Source: Escherichia coli (GTDB taxonomy: Bacteria; Pseudomonadota; Gammaproteobacteria; Enterobacterales; Enterobacteriaceae). Taken from it: 64,000 bases of DNA. The notes under the pieces were generated by a model. It was given only the letters and a program-made list of their open reading frames with translations, made no database searches and was not told the origin of the DNA. Shown here in pieces: positions 7,017 to 59,596 of this stretch. A program made the position numbers and the translations under genes. Positions within the stretch are counted from its first letter, which is position 1, and each line of letters starts with the position of its first letter. The stretch is from assembly GCF_044324875.1 (NCBI RefSeq), contig NZ_CP172185.1; one strand, written 5' to 3'.

Positions 7017-9044
7017 TTAGCCAAATCTGACCTTGCAGAACATAATTAATTTGCGGTAATAGCGTATGACTCGCCCCGCTTTTTTTCGGGTAATAAACAT
7101 CGGCTTGCGCGGCGTCTTGATTAAATATTCCGCAGCTTCTTCTACCGTAATAGGTTGTAGCCGTGTTGGGTGGATATAGGTTGGATAAACAATCAACGCC
7201 TGATAGATCAAATCTGCTAACGTTAATTTTTGCTCGCGGCGCGGGCAGTGATGTTCATCAACGGTTAAACCCCAACCGGCATAGAAGGGCAGGCCGTAAC
7301 AATGTACGTGCTTGCCATGTAATAACGCTTCAAACCCGGACAATGATGTCATGGTGTGCACTTCATCTGCGCGCTGAATGCATTGAATAATATCGGCGTC
7401 CAGTGCCTGATAATCAGCGAGTTCAGCAGTCAGTTCTGCCGGAATATCGCCCTTGCGATTCCCCACCAGTACATCCGGGTGCGGTTTATAAACAATGTAG
7501 GCGTGCGGATTGCGCTCGCGTACTGTGCGTAATAACTCAAGGTTGCTCTTAATCGAGACAGTGCCTGTTTTAATAGAGGCATCGTCCTCTACCTGACCCG
7601 GCACCAGGATAACTTTTTTATCTTTGGCTTCGGCTGGTAGAGAGAAATCGGCTCCCAGGTTGTACTTACTCAGTTTGCTTTCAACCAGTCGCTGGCGTAA
7701 TTTTTCAGCTCGCATCTGCTGCGCCAGCGTTAACTGGCTGTGATTAAGCAGGACTTCCAGGTCGCTGGGGCGCGTGGCGTCATAGTAGATCCCGCGTTTA
7801 TCCAGTACCAACGATAGCGGCGGCAGCAGGTCAGAGCCAAGTCCGGATGAACGCAGAAAACCATCTTCCATTCGCCATAACGGCAGTGATTTTTGTTGCG
7901 CTTCGGCTAGCCATTGCTGTTCTCCCTTTACACCCCATACCACGCAAGCCGTCGCCGCAGTACAACGGCGTGAATAACTCAGTCTGTTTGTTGCGGTACG
8001 CAAGAAAGGTTTCAGGATTGCCGACTTCCACAGCGTTAAGCCTGGCGACCATAAATAGCCATTACGCTGTTGCTGATGGTTGCGCTGTAATTGCAGCCAT
8101 TGCAGTACGGTAAACAGATCGCTTGCGGCCCCCGTGAGCGGGTCGATATAGCGACAGTAACGCAGGTATGCAGCGGCAAAAAGTTCTTCCAGCGTGGCAG
8201 AACCGCGTCGGGCAGATAACAAAGCGGACTGCGGATGGCGATCGTCGGTTAAGCCCCAGCCTGCATACCAGGGCTGGCCGAAACATGTTACTGGTTTTCC
8301 TGCCAGCAAGGCTTCAAAGCCGTATTGGGATGTCACGACGTAAACCCGGGAAACGTGTCGCAACAGCGACTGCGGGCTGACATTCTCGGCAATCAAACGT
8401 ACTCGTTGCGTGGCGCGCAGATCAGCGAAATAACCTGTTTTCTTTCCTTCCAGGACATCCGGATGCACCTTCACCCAAATTTCGGCTTGAGGATTTTCCG
8501 CCATCGCGGCTTCCAGCATGGCAGCAAACTCATGCGGGCCAGCATTGCCATACGTCACTGACATATCATTAAATGTCTGATCGACAACCAGAACGATGTC
8601 TGAACGTTCTGACTCATCAGCCACAAACGCAGGTGCTAGGTTATATTTCGACAAATCCCCGGTCACGATGGTGTGCATCGCTTCTCTGGCCAGGCTTATC
8701 AGAGCTGTATTTCCGGCTTTATCCTGTACCAGTTTCTCCAGTGCTGAAGGCTTGCTGGCATCGTAGTAAATGCCACAATCATCCACCACCAGAGAAAGCG
8801 GCGGCTCGCCATTGACGCCAAGATCCAGCGAACGCACAAATCCATCTTCCAGACGAATGACGGGTTTTCCCGCTGCTTTGGCGATGGCGACTGGTTTCGC
8901 CGCGCTGGGACGATGTCCCCACACGGCGATAGCATCAACTTCTTGCGGAACAGGGCGCAGCAGAGAAAGTTTCTGGCACGGTTGCGCCAGAAATTTCTCC
9001 AGATGCGGAATACGCCAGATGCCAGGCGAGTAAATGCCAATCAT
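7017..9044 (-). CDS. kpsC: KpsC, capsule biosynthesis dual-module beta-Kdo transferase
   Basis: 675-aa ORF with two repeated modules ([14 protein letters not shown] / [14 protein letters not shown]); 4-bp overlap with kpsU. Confidence 0.92.
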
Positions 9045-25478: not shown

Positions 25479-26075
25479 GTGTGTCTGGTCTGCACCGGCT
25501 TAACAAAATTCAACGGGGATAAAATAGTGCAAATAACCGAAGCCTTACTTTCAGCGCCGGGGGAAATCCGGCGTTTTGTTCAGCAGGCGGTGGACCACTG
25601 GCCAAATCTGTTGGCATTTCACTTCACGCTCCATTCGGCAGAAGGAAACATCAACGGACAACAGATTCATGCATTCTGTACTTCCTTTTACCGACAGGTG
25701 CACGAGCGTATTACTGAACGTAATCACACGGCCAGTCCAGCACCACCGGTGGTATTACGCTGGTTGCGGGAACAACATGGAGGAGCAACAATGCGATGCC
25801 TGTTGCTGCTCAGCCAGACGAGCATTTGCCATCCACGGGTCAGTGCCACGGTTGATGAAGAATGTTCGCAACGGGTGGATTTATTGCAACAGACATGGCG
25901 GGTGATAAGTGCTGACGGACAATGCCGGGTGGAAAGGTGTTTTCAGGCTGCCCGGGGTGATACATCCGGCCAGTATATTGCGTTAAAAACAGTTGCATTG
26001 TCTCTGGGGTTACCGGTTGTGACCGGTATTACCCATCGCCCGGTACAGCGCTGTACATTGATTACAGCTCAGTGA
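25479..26075 (+). CDS. probable third YagK/YfjJ-like paralog (divergent)
   Basis: 198-aa ORF with weak shared blocks (ATMRCLLLLSQ, LLQQTWRVI); start uncertain. Confidence 0.45.
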   Translation: MCLVCTGLTKFNGDKIVQITEALLSAPGEIRRFVQQAVDHWPNLLAFHFTLHSAEGNINGQQIHAFCTSFYRQVHERITERNHTASPAPPVVLRWLREQHGGATMRCLLLLSQTSICHPRVSATVDEECSQRVDLLQQTWRVISADGQCRVERCFQAARGDTSGQYIALKTVALSLGLPVVTGITHRPVQRCTLITAQ

Positions 26076-27196: not shown

Positions 27197-28216
27197 TCAG
27201 CAGCTTTCACGTAAACATAAACAGGGCTCAATGAATATCTGATTGCTCCAGTTACCTTCTTTAATTCGTTCCAGCAAAACATTTCCTGCTTCCAGACCAA
27301 TTTTCCTGTGAGGAACGGCCATTGTTGTTAATGATGGTTGGCAAACTTTGCTGACGTCACTGTCACCAAATCCTACTACGGCGAGCTCGTCTGGAACTTT
27401 GATCCGTCTTCGTTGACATTCATAGAGAACACCGCAGGCTAACTCATCTGACACACATACCAGGGCATCCAGTTCCGGCCATGCGAGCAAAAATTCCGGT
27501 AGTTGTGATGCTCCGGTGGAAAAAACAGGTGGCAGAGCAGCGTTAATAACACGGTTGGGAGACATATGATGGCGTAACATAGCTTTATACCATCCCTGTA
27601 AATGCTGCTGAAAGATCCACTGTTCCTGGTTAGCGCATAGCAAACCGATATTCTGATAACCACGTTGTACCAGCATATCCGTCAGCTCGAACATTGCTGC
27701 AACATTATCAATACCAATGTTGATATCTATCGGATCAGTACGAATGGCACCGATTTCTATAACAGGAATCGAGGCATTTTTGAGCAAGTGACGCACGGTA
27801 CTATTATGCTCAACACTAAGCAAAATTGCTGCAGCGATATTAGAAGCCAGCAGGGTTTCCAGCAGTTTTTCTTCTTGTTCCAGACGATGGCGTGACTCAG
27901 CCAGGATTATTTGATACCCCGCTGGTTGTAGCACATGTTGCAGCCCGGCAAACATTTCCGTGCATCCCGCTTCAGCCAGGTTTGGCACGACCATTGCGAT
28001 CGTGTGTGAAGATGCCGATGCCAGTGCGCTTGCAGTGAGGTTGGGCATATACCCTAATTCATTAACTGCGGCTTCAATCTTCTCCCTCAATTTATCTGAA
28101 ACTTGTTCGGGAGTGCGTAACGCTCTGGATACAGTCATTGTGCCAACTCCCGCGAGTTGCGCGACATCAGCAATAGTGACTTTACCTGTACTACGACGTT
28201 TTCGGGTTATTGCCAT
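27197..28216 (-). CDS. LacI-family transcriptional regulator
   Basis: 339-aa ORF with N-terminal HTH VTIADVAQLAGVGTMTVSRAL and periplasmic-binding-like effector domain; divergent from PTS operon. Confidence 0.9.
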   Translation of the reverse strand: MAITRKRRSTGKVTIADVAQLAGVGTMTVSRALRTPEQVSDKLREKIEAAVNELGYMPNLTASALASASSHTIAMVVPNLAEAGCTEMFAGLQHVLQPAGYQIILAESRHRLEQEEKLLETLLASNIAAAILLSVEHNSTVRHLLKNASIPVIEIGAIRTDPIDINIGIDNVAAMFELTDMLVQRGYQNIGLLCANQEQWIFQQHLQGWYKAMLRHHMSPNRVINAALPPVFSTGASQLPEFLLAWPELDALVCVSDELACGVLYECQRRRIKVPDELAVVGFGDSDVSKVCQPSLTTMAVPHRKIGLEAGNVLLERIKEGNWSNQIFIEPCLCLRESC

Positions 28217-28348
28217 ACAAAATCCTGCTCAGCGACTACATATGGAGATCTTTTATTACTTATCATCAACGGCTTCCTGCACTGCCAGTAGCAGAGTATA
28301 CCTCTTAATATCTGCCATAAGTCTGGATTTAATCAGTGAAATCTATTT

Positions 28349-28362
28349 TGATAGCGCTATCA
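28349..28362. promoter_or_regulatory. candidate LacI-family operator O1 (perfect palindrome TGATAGCGCTATCA)
   Basis: 14-bp perfect palindrome with central CG in the divergent intergenic region. Confidence 0.6.
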
Positions 28363-28382
28363 CAAATTCGAACAATACCTCC

Positions 28383-28396
28383 TGATAGCGCTATCT
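28383..28396. promoter_or_regulatory. candidate LacI-family operator O2 (TGATAGCGCTATCT, 13/14)
   Basis: near-identical second copy 34 bp downstream of O1. Confidence 0.55.
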
Positions 28397-28467
28397 TTGT
28401 GATATTGATCGCAGATATACCGTCGTTACTTGAATACATTCTGGTCATATAAATAAGAAATTAGGGG

Positions 28468-28917
28468 GTGGGAGTGCTTAATATCTGGCTTTCTGATTCA
28501 ACAATCGCATTACGAAAGAATGCCGCAACCTGGCAGCAGGCATTAGATATCTGTGCCAGACCGTTACTGGATGCAGAGATAATTACGACGGATTATCTCA
28601 GTGCGATAAAGACACAACATGAAAAACTGGGGCCTTATTATGTCCTGGCACCCGGGCTGGCCATGCCGCATGCCCGACCAGAAGAAGGGGCAAAAGGATT
28701 AGGTTTATCATTATTAAAACTTGAAGAAGGTGTCAGTTTTCATACAGAGGAATTTGATCCTGTAGATGTTATCATTTTACTTGCCGCACCAGACAAACAC
28801 AGTCATATCGAAATGATATCTGCACTGGCTGAGTTATTCTCCAGCGAAAAAGATTTACATGAATTGCATCAGGCTCGCAATGTGGAGGAAATAAAAAAGA
28901 TAATTTCACGGTTCTGA
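28468..28917 (+). CDS. PTS EIIA component, ascorbate (UlaC/SgaA)-type
   Basis: 149-aa ORF with conserved YYVLAPGLAMPHARPEEG phosphorylation-site region; GTG start. Confidence 0.8.
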   Translation: MGVLNIWLSDSTIALRKNAATWQQALDICARPLLDAEIITTDYLSAIKTQHEKLGPYYVLAPGLAMPHARPEEGAKGLGLSLLKLEEGVSFHTEEFDPVDVIILLAAPDKHSHIEMISALAELFSSEKDLHELHQARNVEEIKKIISRF

Positions 28918-28995: not shown

Positions 28996-29268
28996 ATGAA
29001 AATTATGGCTATTTGTGGCTCAGGGCTTGGTAGTAGTTTTATGGTCGAAATGAATATTAAAAAAGTTCTGAAAAAAATGGATATAGAGGCGGAAGTGGAA
29101 CATTCCGATCTCTCATCAGCAACGCCAGGGGCTGCCGATTTATTTGTGATGGCCAAAGATATTGCTGCCAGTGCCAGCGTACCGGAAAGTCAGTTGGTGG
29201 TTATCAACAACATCATTGATATTAATGAACTCGAAACGCAACTGCGTAACTGGTTAGCAAAACAATAA
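28996..29268 (+). CDS. PTS EIIB component, ascorbate (UlaB/SgaB)-type
   Basis: MKIMAICGSGLGSS active-site Cys motif; start placed at the internal ATG rather than the ORF-track start 28948. Confidence 0.8.
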   Translation: MKIMAICGSGLGSSFMVEMNIKKVLKKMDIEAEVEHSDLSSATPGAADLFVMAKDIAASASVPESQLVVINNIIDINELETQLRNWLAKQ

Positions 29269-29284: not shown

Positions 29285-30679
29285 GTGGATATGTTTATCC
29301 TTGAAACGCTGAATTTTGTTGTTGATATACTTAAAGTGCCCGCGATACTGGTCGGCTTGATTGCCTTAATTGGTCTGGTTGCCCAGAAAAAATCTTTTTC
29401 AGATGTTGTTAAAGGTACAATTAAAACTATTCTCGGCTTTATTGTACTGGGCGGTGGTGCCACTGTTTTGGTTGGTTCGTTAAATCCTCTTGGGAGTATG
29501 TTTGAACATGCCTTTAATATTCAGGGCATCATTCCGAATAATGAGGCTATTGTTTCTATTGCGCTGGAAAAATATGGCGCATCGACGGCCCTTATTATGG
29601 CATTTGGTATGGTGGCGAATATTATTGTTGCCCGCTTTACCCGCCTTAAATATATCTTCCTGACCGGACACCACACATTTTACATGGCCTGCATGATTGG
29701 TGTGATTCTGACAGTGGCTGGTTTTGAAGGTATATCACTGGTCTTTACCGGTTCTCTTATTCTGGGACTTGTGATGGCATTTTTCCCGGCATTAGCACAA
29801 CGCTATATGAAGCGTATTACGGGGAATGATGACATTGCTTTTGGTCACTTTGGCACTCTGGGATATGTACTTTCTGGCTGGATTGGCAGCGTGTGCGGTA
29901 AAGGTTCCCGCTCCACCGAAGAGATGAATTTGCCCAAAAATCTGAGCTTCCTGCGCGACAGTTCCATCTCTATTTCTCTTACGATGATGGTGATTTATCT
30001 GATCATGGCGATCAGTGCTGGTCGTGAGTTCGTTGAAAGCCAGTTCAGTGGTGGTCAAAACTACCTTGTCTACGCCATCATAATGGCCATCACCTTCGCT
30101 GCTGGTGTATTTATTATTCTGCAAGGCGTGCGTTTAATCCTTGCTGAAATAGTTCCGGCATTTACCGGGTTTTCAGAAAAGCTGGTGCCGAATGCCCGTC
30201 CGGCCCTCGATTGCCCGGTTGTGTATCCGTATGCGCCAAACGCAGTGTTAGTTGGTTTCTTGTTTAGCTTTTTTGGCGGTCTGGTAGGGCTATTTTTGTT
30301 GGGACAGATGAAACTGGTGTTGATTCTTCCGGGTGTCGTTCCTCACTTTTTTACCGGGGCGGCTGCTGGCGTATTTGGTAACGCTACGGGGGGACGTCGT
30401 GGCGCAATGATTGGTGCTTTTGCGAATGGCTTATTGATTACCTTCCTGCCAGTACTGTTATTGCCGGTTCTTGGGGCGATAGGCTTTGCTAATACGACCT
30501 TTTCCGATGCAGATTTTGGTGCTGTCGGCATCGTCCTCGGAAACCTGGCACGTTATCTCTCACCTTTTGCCATCACCGGACTTGTAGTAGCGCTATTTGT
30601 GCTGCTGGTTGCCTGGAACATTTTCGCCAGTAACAAAATCGCTGCCAAAGCGCAGAAGAAGAGCGGAGCCAAATCATGA
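29285..30679 (+). CDS. PTS EIIC permease, ascorbate (UlaA/SgaT)-type
   Basis: 464-aa polytopic membrane ORF resembling the UlaA family. Confidence 0.85.
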   Translation: MDMFILETLNFVVDILKVPAILVGLIALIGLVAQKKSFSDVVKGTIKTILGFIVLGGGATVLVGSLNPLGSMFEHAFNIQGIIPNNEAIVSIALEKYGASTALIMAFGMVANIIVARFTRLKYIFLTGHHTFYMACMIGVILTVAGFEGISLVFTGSLILGLVMAFFPALAQRYMKRITGNDDIAFGHFGTLGYVLSGWIGSVCGKGSRSTEEMNLPKNLSFLRDSSISISLTMMVIYLIMAISAGREFVESQFSGGQNYLVYAIIMAITFAAGVFIILQGVRLILAEIVPAFTGFSEKLVPNARPALDCPVVYPYAPNAVLVGFLFSFFGGLVGLFLLGQMKLVLILPGVVPHFFTGAAAGVFGNATGGRRGAMIGAFANGLLITFLPVLLLPVLGAIGFANTTFSDADFGAVGIVLGNLARYLSPFAITGLVVALFVLLVAWNIFASNKIAAKAQKKSGAKS

Positions 30680-31506
30680 ATGTTAAAGAATTGACTCAAT
30701 TTGCACGGGATATACGTATCCAGACGCTTAAATCATTAACTCATCTCGGCTTCGGTCATTATGGTGGCAGCATGTCGGTTGTGGAAACGCTGGCAGTGCT
30801 TTATGGCGCTGTAATGAAAATTGATCCTGCTGCTCCCGACTGGCCTGAGCGTGACTATTTTATCCTGTCCAAAGGACATGCCGGACCTGCTCTCTACAGT
30901 ACTCTGGCGCTGAAAGGCTACTTTCCACTGGAAGAATTAAGCACCTTAAATCAGAACGGAACCCGCTTACCAAGTCATCCGGATCGGCTAAAAACGTGTG
31001 GTGTTGATAGCACCACAGGATCGCTGGGGCAGGGGATATCCATTGCCGGAGGGATGGCGCTGTCGCATAAACTGGCGGGGCGCAAGAATCGGGTTTTTTG
31101 TATTGTCGGCGATGGCGAACTTAATGAAGGCCAATGTTGGGAAGCTTTCCAGTTTATCGCGCATCATCGTTTGAATAACCTCACTGTGTTTGTGGACTGG
31201 AACAAACAGCAGCTTGATGGTCAACTGGATGAAATTATTAATCCATTTGATTTGGAAGGAAAATTCCGGGCTTTCGGTTTTGATGTCGTGACAGTGAAGG
31301 GCGATGATATTGAGGGCTTGTTGAATGTAGTTAAACCTGTCCTGCCAGCTGAGGCCAGACCGAGAGTGGTCATTCTCGATAGCATTAAAGGGCAGGGGGT
31401 GCCGTGTCTCGAGCAACTCAGTAATTCTCATCACTTACGCCTCACAGAAGAGATGAAGGGGACGCTAAACGAAACAATTCGCCAACTGGAGGATATGCAT
31501 GATTAA
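30676..31506 (+). CDS. transketolase, N-terminal (thiamine-diphosphate-binding) subunit of a split enzyme
   Basis: 276-aa ORF with GHxG-type and GDGELNEG motifs; 4-bp overlap with EIIC gene. Confidence 0.85.
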   Translation: MNVKELTQFARDIRIQTLKSLTHLGFGHYGGSMSVVETLAVLYGAVMKIDPAAPDWPERDYFILSKGHAGPALYSTLALKGYFPLEELSTLNQNGTRLPSHPDRLKTCGVDSTTGSLGQGISIAGGMALSHKLAGRKNRVFCIVGDGELNEGQCWEAFQFIAHHRLNNLTVFVDWNKQQLDGQLDEIINPFDLEGKFRAFGFDVVTVKGDDIEGLLNVVKPVLPAEARPRVVILDSIKGQGVPCLEQLSNSHHLRLTEEMKGTLNETIRQLEDMHD

Positions 31507-32443
31507 TCTCGCACCGGCAGGACAAAAAGACAGCATTGAAATGCGCAAAGTTTATGCAGATTTTATCGCGCAACAGAGTAAAAACGTCAGTTCTGTCATT
31601 GCTCTTGAGGCTGATTTAATGAGTTCCATGGCAATGGACAGCGTGGCGCAGGATTATCCAGATCACGTCATTAATTGCGGCATTATGGAAGCCAATGTTA
31701 TCGGCACAGCTGCAGGGCTGGCCTTAACCGGGCGCAAGCCATTCGTGCATACCTTTACCGCATTTGCCAGTCGTCGCTGTTTTGATCAACTCTTTATGTC
31801 GCTTGATTACCAGGGCGCTAACGTCAAAGTTATAGCTTCTGATGCGGGTGTTGCTGCTTGCCACAATGGCGGAACACATATGTCATTTGAAGATATGGGA
31901 ATTGTGCGCGGGCTGGCGCATTCGGTGGTGATGGAGATGACAGATGCCGTAATGTTCAGCGATATCTTGCGTCAACTCGTTGCACTGGAAGGATTTTATT
32001 GGATTCGTACCATTCGGAAGCAAGCAGCGAGTATTTACGCACCAGGTACAACCTTTACAATTGGCAAAGGGCAGGTATTACGTGAAGGTACGGATGTCAC
32101 CTTAATTGCTAATGGCATTATGGTGGTGGAAGCCCTGGAGGCCGCACGTCAACTTGAGCTGGCTGGGGTAAGTGTAGCGGTGATTGATATGTTTACGCTC
32201 AAACCCGTTGATCGGATGTTAATTAAAAATTATGCCGAAAAAACAGGACGGATCGTAACATGTGAAAACCATAGTATTCATAATGGATTAGGTTCAGCGG
32301 TTGCTGAAGTGCTTGTAGAAACTTGTCCTGTGCCCATGCGTCGGGTGGGGGTTAAAGAGCGGTATGGCCAGGTTGGAACTCAGGACTTTTTACAGAGAGA
32401 GTACGGGTTAACCGCGCAAGATATTGGTAAGCGTACAGCCTGA
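31499..32443 (+). CDS. transketolase, C-terminal subunit; last codons replaced by IS66-family insertion
   Basis: 314-aa ORF; IS left end (32427) lies 17 nt before the stop, so the terminal GKRTA* is IS-derived. Confidence 0.85.
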   Translation: MINLAPAGQKDSIEMRKVYADFIAQQSKNVSSVIALEADLMSSMAMDSVAQDYPDHVINCGIMEANVIGTAAGLALTGRKPFVHTFTAFASRRCFDQLFMSLDYQGANVKVIASDAGVAACHNGGTHMSFEDMGIVRGLAHSVVMEMTDAVMFSDILRQLVALEGFYWIRTIRKQAASIYAPGTTFTIGKGQVLREGTDVTLIANGIMVVEALEAARQLELAGVSVAVIDMFTLKPVDRMLIKNYAEKTGRIVTCENHSIHNGLGSAVAEVLVETCPVPMRRVGVKERYGQVGTQDFLQREYGLTAQDIGKRTA

Positions 32444-32497
32444 ACCGTCTGGTCAGAATCTGACGAATTAGACAAAGTGGTGTCCACCAAATAAGTA

Positions 32498-32899
32498 GTG
32501 GGAACCAAAGTGTCAGATATGCAGAAAAATGTGACTCCCGGCAGGCGAAAAGGCTGCCCTAATTATCCTCCCGAATTTAAACAGCAGCTCGTTGCTGCCT
32601 CCTGTGAACCCGGGATATCCATCTCAAAACTTGCTCTTGAAAATGGCATTAACGCCAATCTGTTGTTCAAATGGCGACAACAATGGCGCGAGGGAAAGCT
32701 GCTATTACCTTCTTCAGAGAGCCCCCAGCTACTTCCTGTGACTCTCGATGCAGCTGCCGAACAGCCAGAATCGCTCGCAGAGGACCCGGAAACCCTCAGT
32801 ATCAGCTGTGAGGTAACGTTCCGGCACGGGACGCTCCGCTTCAATGGCAATGTCAGCGAAAAGCTCCTGACTCTGCTGATACAGGAACTGAAGCGATGA
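32498..32899 (+). CDS. IS66-family accessory protein OrfA
   Basis: 133-aa ORF with HTH-like ...NANLLFKWRQQWREGKL. Confidence 0.85.
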   Translation: MGTKVSDMQKNVTPGRRKGCPNYPPEFKQQLVAASCEPGISISKLALENGINANLLFKWRQQWREGKLLLPSSESPQLLPVTLDAAAEQPESLAEDPETLSISCEVTFRHGTLRFNGNVSEKLLTLLIQELKR

Positions 32900-33243
32900 T
32901 CCCTTTACCTTCCGGGACCAAAATTTGGCTGGTTGCCGGTATCACCGATATGAGAAATGGCTTCAACGGCCTGGCTGCGAAAGTACAGACGGCGCTGAAA
33001 GACGATCCCATGTCCGGCCATGTTTTCATTTTCCGGGGCCGCAGCGGCAGTCAGGTTAAACTGCTGTGGTCCACCGGTGACGGACTGTGCCTCCTGACCA
33101 AACGGCTGGAGCGTGGGCGCTTCGCCTGGCCGTCAGCCCGTGATGGCAAAGTGTTCCTTACACAGGCGCAGCTGGCGATGCTGCTGGAAGGTATCGACTG
33201 GCGACAGCCTAAGCGGCTGCTGACCTCCCTGACCATGCTGTAA
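32896..33243 (+). CDS. IS66-family OrfB
   Basis: 115-aa [34 protein letters not shown]...; 4-bp overlap with orfA. Confidence 0.85.
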
Positions 33244-33292
33244 ATCTCTTTATCCTGGTTGTCACAGAATAAGCCCGGTAAAATACGGGCTT

Positions 33293-34831
33293 ATGAACGA
33301 CATCTCTTCTGACGACATCTTCCTGCTGAAACAGCGCCTGGCCGAACAGGAAGCGCTGATCCACGCCCTGCAGGAAAAGCTGAGCAACCGGGAGCGCGAA
33401 ATAGACCATCTGCAGGCGCAGCTGGATAAACTCCGCCGGATGAACTTCGGCAGTCGTTCCGAAAAAGTCTCCCGCCGTATCGCACAAATGGAAGCCGATC
33501 TGAACCAGCTTCAGAAAGAGAGCGATACGCTGACTGGTAGGGTGTATGACCCGGCAGTACAGCGTCCGTTGCGTCAGACCCGCATCCGTAAGCCGTTCCC
33601 TGAATCACTACCCCGTGACGAAAAGCGACTGTTGCCTGCGGCGCCGTGCTGCCCGAACTGCGGCGGTTCACTGAGCTATCTGGGCGAGGATACCGCCGAA
33701 CAGCTGGAGTTGATGCGTAGCGCCTTCCGGGTTATCCGGACGGTACGGGAAAAACATGCCTGTACTCAGTGCGATGCCATCGTGCAGGCACCTGCACCTT
33801 CGCGGCCCATCGAGCGGGGTATCGCCGGACCGGGGCTGCTGGCCCGCGTGCTGACCTCGAAGTATGCAGAGCACACCCCGCTGTATCGCCAGTCAGAAAT
33901 ATACGGCCGGCAAGGTGTGGAGCTGAGCCGTTCACTGCTGTCGGGCTGGGTGGATGCATGCTGCCGGCTGCTGTCTCCGCTGGAAGAGGCGCTTCATGGC
34001 TATGTCATGACTGACGGCAAACTCCATGCCGATGATACCCCGGTCCAGGTACTGATGCCGGGTAATAAGAAGACGAAGACCGGGCGGTTGTGGGCGTATG
34101 TTCGTGATGACCGCAATGCCGGGTCAGCGTTGGCACCTGCAGTGTGGTTCGCTTACAGCCCGGACAGAAAAGGCATCCATCCGCAGACTCATCTTGCTTG
34201 CTTCAGCGGTGTGCTGCAAGCGGATGCGTACGCCGGGTTCAACGAGCTGTATCGCAATGGTGGGATAACGGAAGCTGCCTGCTGGGCTCATGCCCGCCGA
34301 AAGATCCACGATGTGCACGTCCGCATCCCGTCAGCACTGACGGAAGAAGCCCTGGAGCAGATCGGTCAGTTGTACGCCATAGAGGCGGATATAAGGGGAA
34401 TGCCGGCAGAGCAGCGGCTTGCTGAACGTCAGCGAAAAACGAAACCGCTGTTGAAATCCCTGGAAAGCTGGTTGCGTGAAAAGATGAAGACCCTGTCGCG
34501 ACACTCAGAGTTGGCGAAGGCGTTCGCGTACGCACTTAACCAGTGGCCGGCACTGACGTACTATGCGAACGATGGCTGGGTGGAAATCGACAACAACATC
34601 GCTGAAAATGCCCTGCGGGCGGTAAGTCTGGGTCGTAAAAACTTCCTGTTCTTCGGCTCTGGCCATGGTGGTGAGCGGGGAGCGCTACTGTACAGCCTGA
34701 TAGGGACGTGCAAACTGAATGACGTGGATCCAGAAAGCTACCTTCGCCATGTGCTTGGCGTCATAGCAGACTGGCCGGTCAACCGGGTCAGCGAACTGCT
34801 TCCGTGGCGCATAGCACTGCCAGCTGAATAA
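33293..34831 (+). CDS. IS66-family transposase OrfC
   Basis: 512-aa ORF with N-terminal leucine zipper, CCPNCGG zinc motif and DDE core. Confidence 0.9.
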
Positions 34832-36695: not shown

Positions 36696-37548
36696 AAAGG
36701 GAGATGAAAAAGGCAATAGCAGAACTGAGTGACAGTGAAACCATTCTGGCGTACAGGGTTGGATGGTGAAACTGATAAAAAAACCCCTCTGAAAATTCTG
36801 TCAGAGGGGTGTAGTCAATAAGGGTGTCATATTCAACATGAAGATGTCTTCTGGGAATGTTTACATAGCAAATGCTTTCACTCCGGTAATTAATTTCCGT
36901 GATTAACTGCTTTCGATCAATAAAGGAATTGCAAAAGTGTGATCTTGTTCACGACATTGTGGATGATAATATGCCTGATGTCTGAATCCGGAAACAGTGA
37001 TCTGGCGGTTTCATGTGAAGTTGACGGATAAAAAATCCGCACGACCAGACAGACGTGCGGTTTACGAAATTCGTAACAAGAGGCTTTTCTACGGATCACG
37101 TGGTGCGTGCCACGTGAAATTTTTGTAGCGCAAAATGTGTGATGTGTAAATACAAGGAAGGAAAAAAGTTAAATCGGTGGAAGTCCATGCCTGCCACATG
37201 TATGTCTGCATTCCTCGTTTTGAACAGAATTCTCACCAGACATCGTGAATTTCTCATTCAATCATCAGAGATATTACCCAGGATTTTTATTGTTTTGTGA
37301 TAGCAGTACTTTAAATGTTCAGATGCTAAAATAAGCGCGCTTATTATAATTATAGTTATGATGTTTTATCTTTATGTATTTTAATGATTTTCTCGTCATT
37401 GCTTTTCTGCTGCTTAAATTGAGGGCGCATATTATACACAATAATATTCCTGGCATTATTAAATTAATAAAAGAGGATTCTTATCACTGTATTTTTGCTC
37501 CGCACTACCGTTCTGGCTGGTGAAGTAATAATACAGGAGAATAACAGA

Positions 37549-55426: not shown

Positions 55427-56539
55427 ATGAACGCCCACTCTGAACGCCTTGAACTACGTGGTTCGCAGCGCCTGCTGCTGGAACTGATCCGTCTCCACGC
55501 CCCGGTGACGCGGGCTGAACTGGCACGGCTGTCGGGACTGACGGCGGGGGCGATCACCCAACAGTGCCGAGAGCTGATGTTCTCCGGCCTGGTGGTGGAA
55601 GGGGAGCGCAATACCGGGCAGCGCGGCCAGCCGTCGCTGCCGTTGCGCCTTAACCCCGGCGGCGGTTGTGCTATCGGGTTGTCGTTCAGTCCCGGTTTTA
55701 TCGATATGACGGTGGTCGATCTCAGTGGTCGCCAGCTGCTGTCGCTTTGCGAAGCACATCAGGAGAATCAGCCACTGGAGGCCTCTCTCGCGCAGATCAA
55801 AACCTTGGTGGAGAAAATGCTGAAAAAGCGCCAGCTCCAGCACGCACGTATTCTCGGCATTGGCTATGCAGTGCCCGGATTTCTGAAAGCGGATGGTCGC
55901 AAGCGCCACAGCGTACCGTGGCTGGAGAGCTGGCGTGAGGTAGATCTCCAGCAGGCGTTTGCCGACAACCTGCCGTGGCCGACGTGGGTGGAAAATAATG
56001 CCAACGCCTCGGCGGTAGGTGAACTGTACAGCGGCAAATGGAATGCGTACAGCGATCTAACCTTTATCGACCTTGGCTACGGTATCGGCGCGGGTATTAT
56101 CTCCGGGAATAAAATGCTACGCGGCGGGTTCTGCAATGCCGGTGAAGTCGGGATGGCGTTTCCATCCGGTACACCGCGCCCGTCGTATAAGGATTTGCTT
56201 GCCACACTGGAGCGTGAAGGATTCAGTGAAACTAAGCTACCGGAGCTGATAGCCGGGCAGCACCCACTGCTGGAAAGCTGGTTTGAACGCTGTCGTGGCC
56301 AGGTGGAGCAGACGCTCTTCAGCTGTGTGCAGTGGGTAGACCCGCAAATCATCGTACTCGGTGGCGCGATGCCGAAACCGATTATCAGTCGTCTGGTGCA
56401 GGAACTGAATCAACTGATGGAAGCCTGCCTCGATCCCAACCGCCCCAGAGTGAAGTTAGCTGCCTCTTCGATGGGAGCACAGAGTGCGTCATGCGGCGCG
56501 GCGATGCTCCCGTTGTATAAGGTGATTAATAATGGATAA
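55427..56539 (+). CDS. ROK-family (NagC/Mlc-like) transcriptional regulator
   Basis: 370-aa ORF with N-terminal HTH and ROK sugar-kinase-like fold motifs. Confidence 0.8.
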   Translation: MNAHSERLELRGSQRLLLELIRLHAPVTRAELARLSGLTAGAITQQCRELMFSGLVVEGERNTGQRGQPSLPLRLNPGGGCAIGLSFSPGFIDMTVVDLSGRQLLSLCEAHQENQPLEASLAQIKTLVEKMLKKRQLQHARILGIGYAVPGFLKADGRKRHSVPWLESWREVDLQQAFADNLPWPTWVENNANASAVGELYSGKWNAYSDLTFIDLGYGIGAGIISGNKMLRGGFCNAGEVGMAFPSGTPRPSYKDLLATLEREGFSETKLPELIAGQHPLLESWFERCRGQVEQTLFSCVQWVDPQIIVLGGAMPKPIISRLVQELNQLMEACLDPNRPRVKLAASSMGAQSASCGAAMLPLYKVINNG

Positions 56540-58036
56540 GAAGTTATGTGATTGTTGCTTCTGAAAGTGATATTTTATGTTGTTAAAATGTAAAGTAATA
56601 ATACAATGAGCTATCCATGATGGGGTTCTGTAAATAAACAAAACACTCTCTTCAATTCTGCTCACCTTCGGTATTTGTGTATCATCACTGGCTACTGATA
56701 AAAACAGAACCGTCAGTTTTCCACGATGTGAAGGGCAGGAATCATCGGCTGTTGCAGCCAGCGTCAAACGGGACTATCTCCAGAAACAGGTGCTTCACTG
56801 GAAAGATGACTAGGTGATCTTCAGTCAGCAGCATCCTGTTGTCTGGGTGAATCTTCGTGAGCTGGTAAGTAAAGGTGATAATTTAGTCACAGTGCATCTC
56901 ACCGCCCGGGGGAAGAAAGCCGATATTCAGTATCGGGTGCGCATTGACTGTAAGAACGAAAACGCTATCTGGCAGCGCCAGAGATGAACGTATGGAGATA
57001 ATCACAGAGTATGAACAAACGGACTCTACATGTTCATTATGACTAAAAAACGCTGTTTTATTTTACGTTGCTGTCATAACGTGTTTATCTCAATTTTCGG
57101 GAACATGTTCTTAGCGGTTAGACTGGCCCCCTGAATCTCCTGCGTTTGAAGGACAGTAACAGGTTAAGTGATAACAGATGTATGAAAATATAGAGATACA
57201 TCCAAGGAAGAGCCACTTTTGCGCCGTTCGTGACAGTTTTGTCATGTCCTTGCTCCGGCCTGGTTTATGTTCATAAGTCCTTCTTCACCAGTATCTTTGT
57301 AAACCTTCACCCAGTGCCAGATAATGGTTTCATTTGATATATTAAACTGTGTAGTGGCCTAGCGCATGGTAAGTTCTTCACTCAAACCTTCAGGACAACT
57401 GTCAGTCGAAACTCAGGAGAGCCGCGGTCATTTTGCCATGTAATACCATCAATACCGTGGAGTTGCCAGCCCTTGACCCAGCATCGCTCTGATGTTTCTT
57501 CAACACCAAAACGTTCAGCGGTACGACGTGTACCATCGTGTCCGGCAATATAATGATTAACTACAGCTTATTCGGTTTAGAGAAAATATTTTGGCTTTGC
57601 CATAAAAACTAACCTTAATCAGTTGGATGTCCAACTTTTGGAGGGAGAGTCCAACGATGGTACAGGATTTATTCATGTTAATTTTTCACAAACTCCTTTA
57701 TTCGTGTGATGTTAATCACAAAATACCAAAGAGAACGTTGAAAAAATAATGATACATTGTAAAAGATATATTAATTAATTTTTCATAATTTTATTATATA
57801 TGCTGCATGTCAATTATTTATATACCAAAAACCGAACAAAAATATTTATTATAGGTATTATGAAATAACCTTTCCATATTGTTTATTTTAATGCAATCAG
57901 CACAGATTACTTCAAAAATATAATTAGATGCATGAAAAGGGAGAAACAATATATTTTATTGTTTAAGATATTTTGTTCAACATGTATGCTGAGAGATAAA
58001 CTTATCGATACTTAAAAAATCCGAAAAGGAGGAATA

Positions 58037-59596
58037 ATGATAACAAAAAGAGAAAGACGTTTCCTGAGAACAGTAGAATGGCTTGGCAATGCACTTCCTC
58101 ATCCCGTCATCCTGTTCATAATATTAACAATTTCCTTAATTGTAGTTTCGATGATTGGACAATATTTTAATATTAGCGCCCCAGACCCAAGACCACCTGG
58201 AGCTAAAGGCCGGAATGATGATGGTATTATTTATATTGTAAGTTTACTGGATGCAGATGGAGTTCGTAAAATTCTTTCGAATCTGGTTACTAATTTTACG
58301 GGATTTGCACCACTGGGCACTGTTCTGGTTTCTCTTCTTGGTGTTGGTATTGCAGAACGGTCCGGGTTAATTTCAGCAACCCTTCGTCTTATTGTGACAA
58401 AAGCCCCTGCAAAAGTAACAACTATAGCTGTTGTCTTTGCCGGTATCATGTCCAACATGGCTTCAGAACTTGGCTATGTCGTTTTAATACCACTTTCGGC
58501 AATACTTTTTCATTCTCTGGGAAGACATCCCTTGGCCGGGCTTGCTGCTGCTTTTGCGGGAGTCTCGGGTGGCTATTCAGCAAATTTAGTATTAGGTACA
58601 ATCGATCCGCTCTTGTCAGGAATCACCCAGCAAGCAGCGCAAATTGTATCATCTGATTATATTGTAGGGGCTGAATCCAACTGGTATTTTATGTTTGTCA
58701 GTACATTTTTTATAACACTCATGGGGTACCTGATAACAGAAAAAATAGTTGAACCACAGTTAGGGAAATACAAGGGTGGAGGGTTCAATCAGGATGAACA
58801 GTCAATTCGTAATTCATCTGATGTTACAGCAGTTGAGAAAAAAGCGTTAATGCTGTCCTTTTTATCTGTACTTCTACTATCTGTTATTGTTGCCATTCTG
58901 GTTATTCCTGAAGATGGAATCTTACGTAATCAACAAACAGGATTAATCAGCAATTCTCCATTTCTTAAATCAATAGTGGCTTTCATTTTCATATTCTTTT
59001 CATTAGCTGGTGTAGTATATGGATATACAGCGGGAACAATAAAAAATAGCAAAGATATTGTTGATGCCATGACTCATTCAATGAGTACATTAGGACTTTA
59101 TCTGGTCATTATATTTTTTGCCTCTCAGTTTGTAGCTTTGTTTAGCTGGACAAATATTGGTCAGGTTATTGCGGTTAAAGGCGGGAGTTTTCTGAATAGT
59201 CTTGATTTGCCAGATTCCGTAATATTTATTGGATTTATATTGATTTGTGCTGTCATTAATTTAATGATTGGGTCCGCATCTGCTCAATGGGCAGTAACAG
59301 CACCAATTTTTGTTCCTATGTTAATGATGGCAGGATATGCCCCTGAAGTAATACAGGCTGCTTATAGAATTGGAGATTCAGTAACAAACATTATTACTCC
59401 AATGATGAGTTATTTTGGGCTTGTTATGGCTATTGTACTTAAATACAAAAAGGATGCCGGTGTTGGGACTTTGATATCAATGATGCTTCCATACTCCATA
59501 GTTTTCCTCGTCGGGTGGTCTGTATTCTTTGTTATATGGGTCTTTGTACTGAACTTACCCGTTGGCCCCGGGGCATCGACCTATTATCTCCCATAA
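58037..59596 (+). CDS. AbgT-family transporter
   Basis: 519-aa AT-rich polytopic ORF; N-terminus RFLRTVEWLGNALPHPVILFIIL typical of AbgT family. Confidence 0.85.
   Translation: MITKRERRFLRTVEWLGNALPHPVILFIILTISLIVVSMIGQYFNISAPDPRPPGAKGRNDDGIIYIVSLLDADGVRKILSNLVTNFTGFAPLGTVLVSLLGVGIAERSGLISATLRLIVTKAPAKVTTIAVVFAGIMSNMASELGYVVLIPLSAILFHSLGRHPLAGLAAAFAGVSGGYSANLVLGTIDPLLSGITQQAAQIVSSDYIVGAESNWYFMFVSTFFITLMGYLITEKIVEPQLGKYKGGGFNQDEQSIRNSSDVTAVEKKALMLSFLSVLLLSVIVAILVIPEDGILRNQQTGLISNSPFLKSIVAFIFIFFSLAGVVYGYTAGTIKNSKDIVDAMTHSMSTLGLYLVIIFFASQFVALFSWTNIGQVIAVKGGSFLNSLDLPDSVIFIGFILICAVINLMIGSASAQWAVTAPIFVPMLMMAGYAPEVIQAAYRIGDSVTNIITPMMSYFGLVMAIVLKYKKDAGVGTLISMMLPYSIVFLVGWSVFFVIWVFVLNLPVGPGASTYYLP

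Follow-up and report, generated by a model that had tools for sequence, protein, structure and literature searches.

Twin palindromes upstream of a predicted CRP-dependent promoter are candidate operators of a LacI-family regulator in an Escherichia coli PTS/transketolase cassette

Two copies of one palindrome, here termed O1 and O2, lie between a LacI-family regulator gene and a PTS/transketolase operon of Escherichia coli, and judging from their form, position and conservation we consider it quite likely that both are bound by the adjacent regulator, which would control the operon through anti-activation of a CRP-dependent promoter. The stretch of DNA that we analysed, hereafter the window, is 64 kb long, and the features of interest are collected in Table 1. 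A preliminary description of the locus had proposed the palindromes as operator candidates of the adjacent regulator, and this proposal is borne out by the comparison with other genomes, since the palindrome is perfect in 78 of 78 regions, against about 34% identity in the flanks, while orthologs that are only 43-49% identical keep it or change it symmetrically. The coordinates, the sequences, the 34-bp spacing, the 13/14 copy and the location in the divergent gap all proved exact on re-reading. Sugar-inducible control of the PTS/transketolase operon, which had been predicted as well, is what we infer too.

Table 1. Features of the regulator-PTS/transketolase cassette, in window coordinates
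Feature	Position	Strand	Sequence or remark
LacI-family regulator gene	27197..28216	-	339 aa; RefSeq annotation and partial NCBIfam matches
Regulator Shine-Dalgarno sequence	28223..28227	-	CAGGA; 90-100% conserved in 79 intergenic regions
Predicted regulator -10 element	28300 to 28295	-	TATACT; T1, A2 and T6 100% conserved, other positions 88-96%
Operator candidate O1	28349-28362	no strand	TGATAGCGCTATCA; perfect 14-bp palindrome with central CG
Operator candidate O2	28383-28396	no strand	TGATAGCGCTATCT; 13/14 match to O1
CRP-type site	28395..28416	no strand	core TGTGA-N6-TCGCA at 28398-28413; centre 28405/28406
Predicted PTS operon -10 element	28435..28440	+	TACATT; TAAAGT in 63 of 79 species
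Conserved CAT	28446..28448	+	at least 90% conserved, 7 nt past the -10; predicted start A28447
PTS EIIA gene	28474..28917	+	mannitol/ascorbate type; first gene of the operon
PTS EIIB gene	28996..29268	+	
PTS EIIC gene	29291..30679	+	SgaT/UlaA (ascorbate) type; NF009549, 989 bits, above cutoff
Transketolase N-terminal subunit gene	30676..31506	+	
Transketolase C-terminal subunit gene	31499..32446	+	IS66-family insertion from 32427 replaces the final 8 codons

Results

Twin palindromes in the divergent intergenic region

Both palindromes are located inside the 257-bp gap between the regulator gene on the minus strand and the PTS IIA gene on the plus strand, with O1 starting 125 bp and O2 starting 91 bp ahead of the IIA start codon, and thus 34 bp apart from start to start. 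At O1 the conserved block widens to 28347-28364, and the palindrome can be extended to 18 of 20 positions. In form and position the two sites agree with operators of the LacI/GalR family, namely even-length palindromes (14-22 bp) with a central CG that lie beside the regulator gene and 30-140 bp before the start codon of the target. [quoted passage not shown] 2014, PMC4052901). As a type of element, a pair of LacI-family operators placed in tandem between divergent promoters is ordinary.

A lone perfect 14-bp palindrome is ordinary in the window as well, where 5 were observed against 4.5 expected from first-order Markov simulation, and it is the twin copy that is unusual: a palindrome with a copy of at most one mismatch within 100 bp of it turned up just once among 200 simulated windows. 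O1 and O2 are the only matches to the palindrome with two or fewer mismatches in the 64 kb, and the three matches with 3 mismatches are in line with shuffled sequence (5 matches in total against 2.7 expected). The real significance of the pair derives from the comparison with other genomes and not from the palindrome count. Two further perfect 14-bp palindromes with a central CG, GTACAGCGCTGTAC at 26043-26056 and ATAAGCGCGCTTAT at 37331-37344, may be meaningless, as the total equals the chance expectation. Perfect palindromes also occur at 49443 and 50151.

Conservation across Enterobacterales

The comparison set comprised 80 Enterobacterales loci, taken from one genome per species, whose regulators are 73-96% identical to that of the window and which represent the genera Escherichia, Citrobacter, Salmonella, Enterobacter, Klebsiella, Kosakonia, Cedecea, Serratia, Rahnella and Erwinia. 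The complete divergent cassette is kept in 79 of these loci. Conservation within the gap was scored as a footprint over 78 complete intergenic regions together with that of the window, and all 79 sequences are distinct from one another.

O1 is identical at 14 of 14 positions in all 80 orthologous loci, and O2 reads TGRTAGCGCTATCT in every one of the 78 other species, at a spacing of 34 bp in 64 of the 79 regions and of 35 bp in 15. Mean identity to the window is 1.00 for O1 and 0.95 for O2, compared with 0.46 for the spacer and 0.34 for the remaining intergenic sequence; the two sites are hence conserved together with the regulator amid diverging flanks, as is typical of LacI/GalR-family operators.

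According to the preliminary description, frequent genome-wide occurrence of the palindrome would have spoken against an operator, and a search for additional copies had been suggested. In the orthologous loci, which add up to 984 kb, the palindrome is not frequent: each locus has a single perfect 14-mer (80 in all), always in the regulator-PTS intergenic region, and no more operator copies were found within 6 kb on either side in the 80 species or in the whole window. Outside the intergenic region, the sole match with at most one mismatch in the 984 kb falls inside the coding sequence of yfcD, which encodes a NUDIX hydrolase. Near-copies of this kind, TGATTGCGCTATCA or a variant with 2 mismatches, are present just past the regulator gene at positions 7485-7498 of locus L041 and at the homologous yfcD positions of L010, L013, L014, L027, L030, L034, L050 and L072. 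The yfcD sequence is probably kept by coding constraint and is no operator.

The CRP-type site and the predicted promoters

Immediately downstream of the twin palindromes is a CRP-type site, the 22-mer of which overlaps the final two bases of O2. It carries 9 of the 10 core bases of the CRP consensus TGTGA-N6-TCACA, and 0.31 matches to the pattern of the site would be expected by chance in the window. Across the footprint the left half is TGTGA in 66 of 79 species and the right half is TCACA, TCGCA or TCACG in 71 of 79, while the six middle bases are unconserved and the offset from O2 is fixed. The predicted PTS -10 element, of the form TAnAnT, has T1, A2 and T6 conserved at 100%, and its first base lies 29 nt past the centre of the CRP site in 74 of 79 species and 30 nt in 3. 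In the window itself, both the -10 element (TACATT) and the right half of the CRP site (TCGCA) are imperfect. The sole other match to TGTGA-N6-TCRCA in the window is a perfect CRP-type palindrome, TGTGATGTTAATCACA at 57705-57720, which sits in the long gap that separates a ROK-like ORF (55427-56539) from an AbgT-family transporter ORF (58037-59596).

Counted from the predicted start at A28447, the CRP site would be centred at about -41.5, which points to class II geometry, and the centres of O2 and O1 would be at about -57.5 and -91.5, respectively. A class II CRP-dependent arrangement needs no -35 element, and in the footprint alignment neither of the two conserved promoters has a recognisable one.

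On the other side of O1, the predicted -10 element of the regulator (AGTATA on the plus strand) is present in 71 of 79 species and lies 54 bp from O1 in 64 of 79, and the sequence between the two is only about 30% conserved despite this fixed length. The leader of the regulator ranges from 38 to 136 bp. No convincing -35 element or activator site was found for the regulator's own promoter. TATACT is the only conserved -10 element on the minus strand, and with the regulator start that it predicts, at about 28288, O1 is placed at about -67 and thus clear of the core promoter, so that the autoregulation put forward in the preliminary description finds no support in the geometry.

A promoter scan additionally returned TTGATA at 28348, a 17-bp spacer and AACAAT ending at 28376, which would set O1 on the -35 element and O2 on the start site. 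We rejected this candidate because its -10 element is unconserved, with 10-80% agreement per position and several species that have no -10-like hexamer there. The operator-over-promoter picture that had been implied for the locus has to be revised accordingly: the conserved promoter, which consists of the CRP site and the -10 element, is downstream of both operators, and control is therefore probably dual, through CRP and the regulator.

The regulator and its distant orthologs

The best NCBIfam matches of the regulator are GntR/IdnR-type LacI-family models, all of them partial and below cutoff (GntR, 270 against 400 bits; IdnR, 225 against 500 bits). Pfam PF00356 is precomputed for the protein, and the closest solved structures are those of a GntR, CcpA, PurR and LacI. 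The LacI-type helix-turn-helix and the hinge-helix leucine that mark the LacI/GalR family are both present: the helix-turn-helix (...GVGTMTVSRALR...) and the hinge (YMPNLTASALAS, including Leu65) are invariant or nearly so in the orthologous group, with a hinge pattern of YxPNxxAxxLAS and with T28, S30, R31 and L65 invariant among the orthologs. In the PurR/LacI family, it is this hinge leucine that inserts at the central CpG of the operator. The regulator aligns with LacI residues 4-306 only, and its remaining 23 residues, IKEGNWSNQIFIEPCLCLRESC, contain no heptad leucines. It thus has no C-terminal leucine-heptad tetramerisation helix of the kind used in lac-type tetrameric looping, and two independent dimers are therefore expected.

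In addition, we considered a distant set made up of the nearest 50%-identity cluster representatives, whose regulators are 43-49% identical to that of the window and of which most are divergent from IIA-IIB-IIC (SgaT-type) genes. A perfect TGATAGCGCTATCA is present in L083 (regulator 49% identical), where the contig ends soon after the site. In L084/L085 (45%), TGTTAGCGATAACA and TGTTAGCGCTAACT are 33 bp apart and are followed by TGCGA-N6-TCACA, and L087 (43%) has three copies at spacings of 21 and 13 bp, with TGTGA-N6-TCGCT and TAAAGT after them; the order of operator and then CRP site hence recurs in L084 and L087. L088 (44%) has two sites 34 bp apart and no evident CRP-like site. Both sites of L084 are altered at position 3 and at the mirror position 12, which is the pattern to be expected if the sites were read by a symmetric dimer, and this operator variant coincides with the recognition-helix substitutions G25S and V29A. 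A single perfect site lies 28 bp ahead of the IIA start codon in L089 (44%), beside the ribosome-binding site, a position that is compatible with repression only. In L086 (43%), TGATAGCGCAATCA is found right upstream of the regulator gene, with no PTS genes near. The enzyme that accompanies the PTS varies among the orthologs and is a transketolase, a ribulose-phosphate epimerase or an Fe-alcohol dehydrogenase.

Discussion

Proposed mechanism

In the mechanism that we propose, each palindrome would take one regulator dimer, with Leu65 inserted at the central CpG, and the PTS/transketolase operon would be read from a CRP-dependent promoter that has no recognisable -35 element. At class II CRP promoters, the alpha C-terminal domain of RNA polymerase binds upstream of CRP (Busby and Ebright). 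O2 abuts the CRP site and would fill the DNA on which this domain is expected to dock, while O1 would be one 34-bp step farther upstream. When inducer is absent, occupation of O2 and O1 by the regulator would block the recruitment of CRP and/or polymerase; the inducer, presumably the phosphorylated product of the PTS, would release the regulator, after which CRP-cAMP could activate the operon. Expression would accordingly need the substrate to be present and a preferred sugar to be absent. We infer repression as the sign of control from the family norm, from the overlap of O2 with the CRP site and from the position of the L089 site, which suits a repressor only. Most LacI-family members bind DNA without ligand (PMC4052901). 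The operator spacing of 34-35 bp corresponds to about 3.3 helical turns and is out of phase for simple side-by-side cooperativity, and a centre-to-centre distance of 16 bp puts O2 and the CRP site on opposite helix faces; the two may be occupied simultaneously.

Alternative explanations

Both operators precede the predicted core promoter, as the sites of activators can too, and the same regulator could in principle work as an activator, or as a co-activator with CRP, at the PTS promoter and/or at its own. The distances are typical of activators (O2 at -57.5 and O1 at -91.5 for the PTS promoter, O1 at -67 for the regulator promoter), the stretch from the regulator -10 element to O1 is held at 54 bp in 64 of 79 species while its sequence is unconserved, and a recognisable -35 element is missing at both promoters. 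The Salmonella protein PagR (STM2345) is, moreover, reported to be a positive regulator of SPI-2. We nevertheless regard activation as rather improbable, since local LacI-family regulators are mostly repressors released by a ligand (PMC4052901), the single perfect site 28 bp before the IIA start in L089 is in a repressor position, and the overlap of O2 with the CRP 22-mer favours competition.

It is very unlikely that the palindromes are the target of another protein, such as a GntR/IdnR-type paralog or a global factor, and stand beside the regulator gene by coincidence. GntR and IdnR are the closest characterised relatives of the regulator and their operators share the frame of the palindrome (TGTTACCGGTAACA against TGATAGCGCTATCA), which makes cross-recognition conceivable. 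However, the sites accompany the regulator in 80 of 80 loci, including the E. coli island copy, which is away from the ancestral yfcC-yfcD position, and orthologs with 43-49% identity carry them in other genomic contexts; in L086 the regulator gene retains an upstream site although the PTS is absent, and in L084 the operator variant tracks the recognition-helix changes G25S and V29A. Pairing of O1 and O2 as an RNA hairpin or a DNA cruciform, in place of protein operators, seems hardly credible, even though RNA of the region 28340-28410 folds into a 13-bp stem (-20.3 kcal/mol, z = -5.4), for such a stem follows automatically from two copies of one palindrome. The region is upstream of both conserved -10 elements and probably untranscribed, no Rfam match was found in it, and a conserved hairpin is incompatible with the distant orthologs, in which there is a single site or there are three at spacings of 21 and 13 bp. 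As for a functionless palindrome that acquired a partial copy by chance, we give this practically no weight: perfect 14-bp palindromes are at chance frequency in the window (5 against 4.5), yet the twin copy appeared once in 200 simulations, and the idea is refuted by the invariance of the sites in 79 distinct intergenic sequences in which other positions are about 34% conserved.

Relation to known systems

The locus is the E. coli island copy of a regulon that has already been predicted by comparative genomics. RegPrecise contains a LacI-family regulog of Enterobacteriales named 'SgaR' (regulog 5355), with STM2345 of Salmonella Typhimurium LT2 as representative, with the label 'ascorbate utilization' and the effector 'ascorbate-6-phosphate', and with sister regulogs in Pasteurellales, Aeromonadales and Vibrionales (PMC4052901). 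The SgaR regulog resembles the window in that a LacI-family regulator is divergent from an SgaT-type PTS operon, and differs in that the copy of the window is on a mobile island near selC and not at yfcC-yfcD. It is itself a computational prediction, and the likeness drawn here is one of regulator orthology. The ascorbate label is doubtful and seems to be a guess, because the cassette contains no ascorbate catabolic genes (UlaG/D/E/F-like) and because the enzyme partner differs among the orthologs. The term 'ascorbate-type', which the preliminary description applied to the PTS/transketolase operon, is likewise unsupported, given a cassette that is free of such genes.

The regulator is 87% identical to its Salmonella ortholog in the yfcC...yfcD locus, and the order of the cassette is the same in both. 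In Salmonella, this order runs from yfcC through tkt-tkt-IIC-IIB-IIA to the divergent regulator gene and on to yfcD-yfcE-yfcF-yfcG-yfcH-hisP, and the Salmonella enterica intergenic region contains the same O1, O2, CRP site and -10 element as the window. We take hisP to be STM2351, and counting the locus tags back from it gives STM2345 for the regulator of the Salmonella cassette; the 87% identity and the identical cassette order support orthology with STM2345. STM2345 has also been published as PagR (Jiang et al. 2020, Cell Microbiol 22:e13125), reportedly a LacI-family activator of SPI-2 whose inducing conditions are low Mg2+ and low phosphate, and would thus be the same orthologous LacI-family protein as the regulator of the window. 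The genes that PagR is reported to activate are SPI-2 virulence genes, whereas E. coli has no SPI-2.

Among characterised regulators, GntR and IdnR are the closest paralogs, and their operators are, like O1 and O2, palindromes with a central CG. They are built on the same half-site frame (TGTTAC followed by CG). The half-sites differ at two positions, TGATAG in the window against TGTTAC in GntR/IdnR operators, and the target genes differ as well. Tandem sites are also common among GntR/IdnR operators (PMC4052901).

The arrangement is similar to CytR-CRP regulation of E. coli deo, udp and cdd in that a LacI-family repressor is placed beside a CRP site and off the core promoter, and the outcome here would likewise be a probable loss of CRP-dependent activation. 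CytR, however, is flanked by two CRP sites, recognises half-sites that are weak and flexible in spacing, and needs contacts with the CRP protein, whereas in the window there is only one CRP site, and the two palindromes ahead of it are strong and canonical. With the O1/O2/O3 operators of the lac operon, the locus shares several operators and a CRP-dependent promoter. In contrast to lac, the promoter follows both operators of the window, which are separated by 34 bp, and the tetramerisation helix is missing; lac-type looping is therefore not expected.

A literature search (for the palindrome, SgaR, STM2340-2345 and tktC) yielded no description or experimental test of the operators. What is mildly unusual about the locus is that both operators lie upstream of a predicted class II CRP site and that the length of the module is strictly conserved. 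Compared with the preliminary description, the present analysis would add the predicted class II CRP site that abuts O2 and the length-conserved two-way module. The analysis provides a wiring diagram for an accessory sugar-uptake/transketolase cassette, in which a candidate regulator is joined to a pair of operators, a CRP site and two predicted promoters, and the same cassette is chromosomal in many other Enterobacterales. It also ties the cassette of E. coli to the tktC/PagR locus of Salmonella, so that work on PagR and on the third transketolase of Salmonella becomes transferable and checkable.

A more far-reaching proposal, which we consider unlikely although worth stating, is that the roughly 150 bp from 28295 to 28448 might constitute a two-way module of fixed geometry that acts through contacts with CRP and polymerase, and that the regulator might have targets outside the cassette in the manner of PagR. 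The elements of this module would be, in order, the regulator -10, 54 bp, O1, 34 bp, O2, the CRP site and the PTS -10. Were this true, control would work by CytR-like anti-activation or by co-activation and not by simple occlusion, and in extraintestinal and avian pathogenic E. coli the control exerted by the island copy could extend to genes beyond the cassette.

Genomic context of the E. coli cassette

The cassette is present in 133 of 5426 complete E. coli genomes (about 2.5%), in each case with at least 99% identity, and is absent from E. coli K-12. In E. coli it is on a mobile island near selC, together with CP4-57-like genes and insertion sequences, and in strain TUM9803 the island is flanked by setC and yicL. 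This location is confined to E. coli (the window, L001 and L082, as opposed to L002-L081): yfcD adjoins the cassette in 71 of the 80 other species, and in Escherichia whittamii, E. albertii, Citrobacter and Salmonella yfcC is the neighbour on the opposite side. Since the E. coli cassette is off yfcC-yfcD and on an island, it was either relocated or acquired horizontally, and its entire control region came with it. Papers that cite the description of the vpe PTS locus of uropathogenic E. coli (Martinez-Jehanne 2012) place that locus beside the deoK operon, and deoK was not found in the island of the cassette.

The distal end of the operon is interrupted in the window by an IS66-family element at 32427-34831, with TnpA, TnpB and transposase ORFs at 32498-34831, as a consequence of which the C-terminal transketolase subunit, which ends in ...DIVAAARELL in strain AR_0085, ends in ...DIGKRTA before the stop codon. 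In TUM9803 (L082, 39039-42569), the island also carries a cluster in which a second LacI-family regulator gene is bordered by genes for a nucleoside hydrolase and an MFS transporter.
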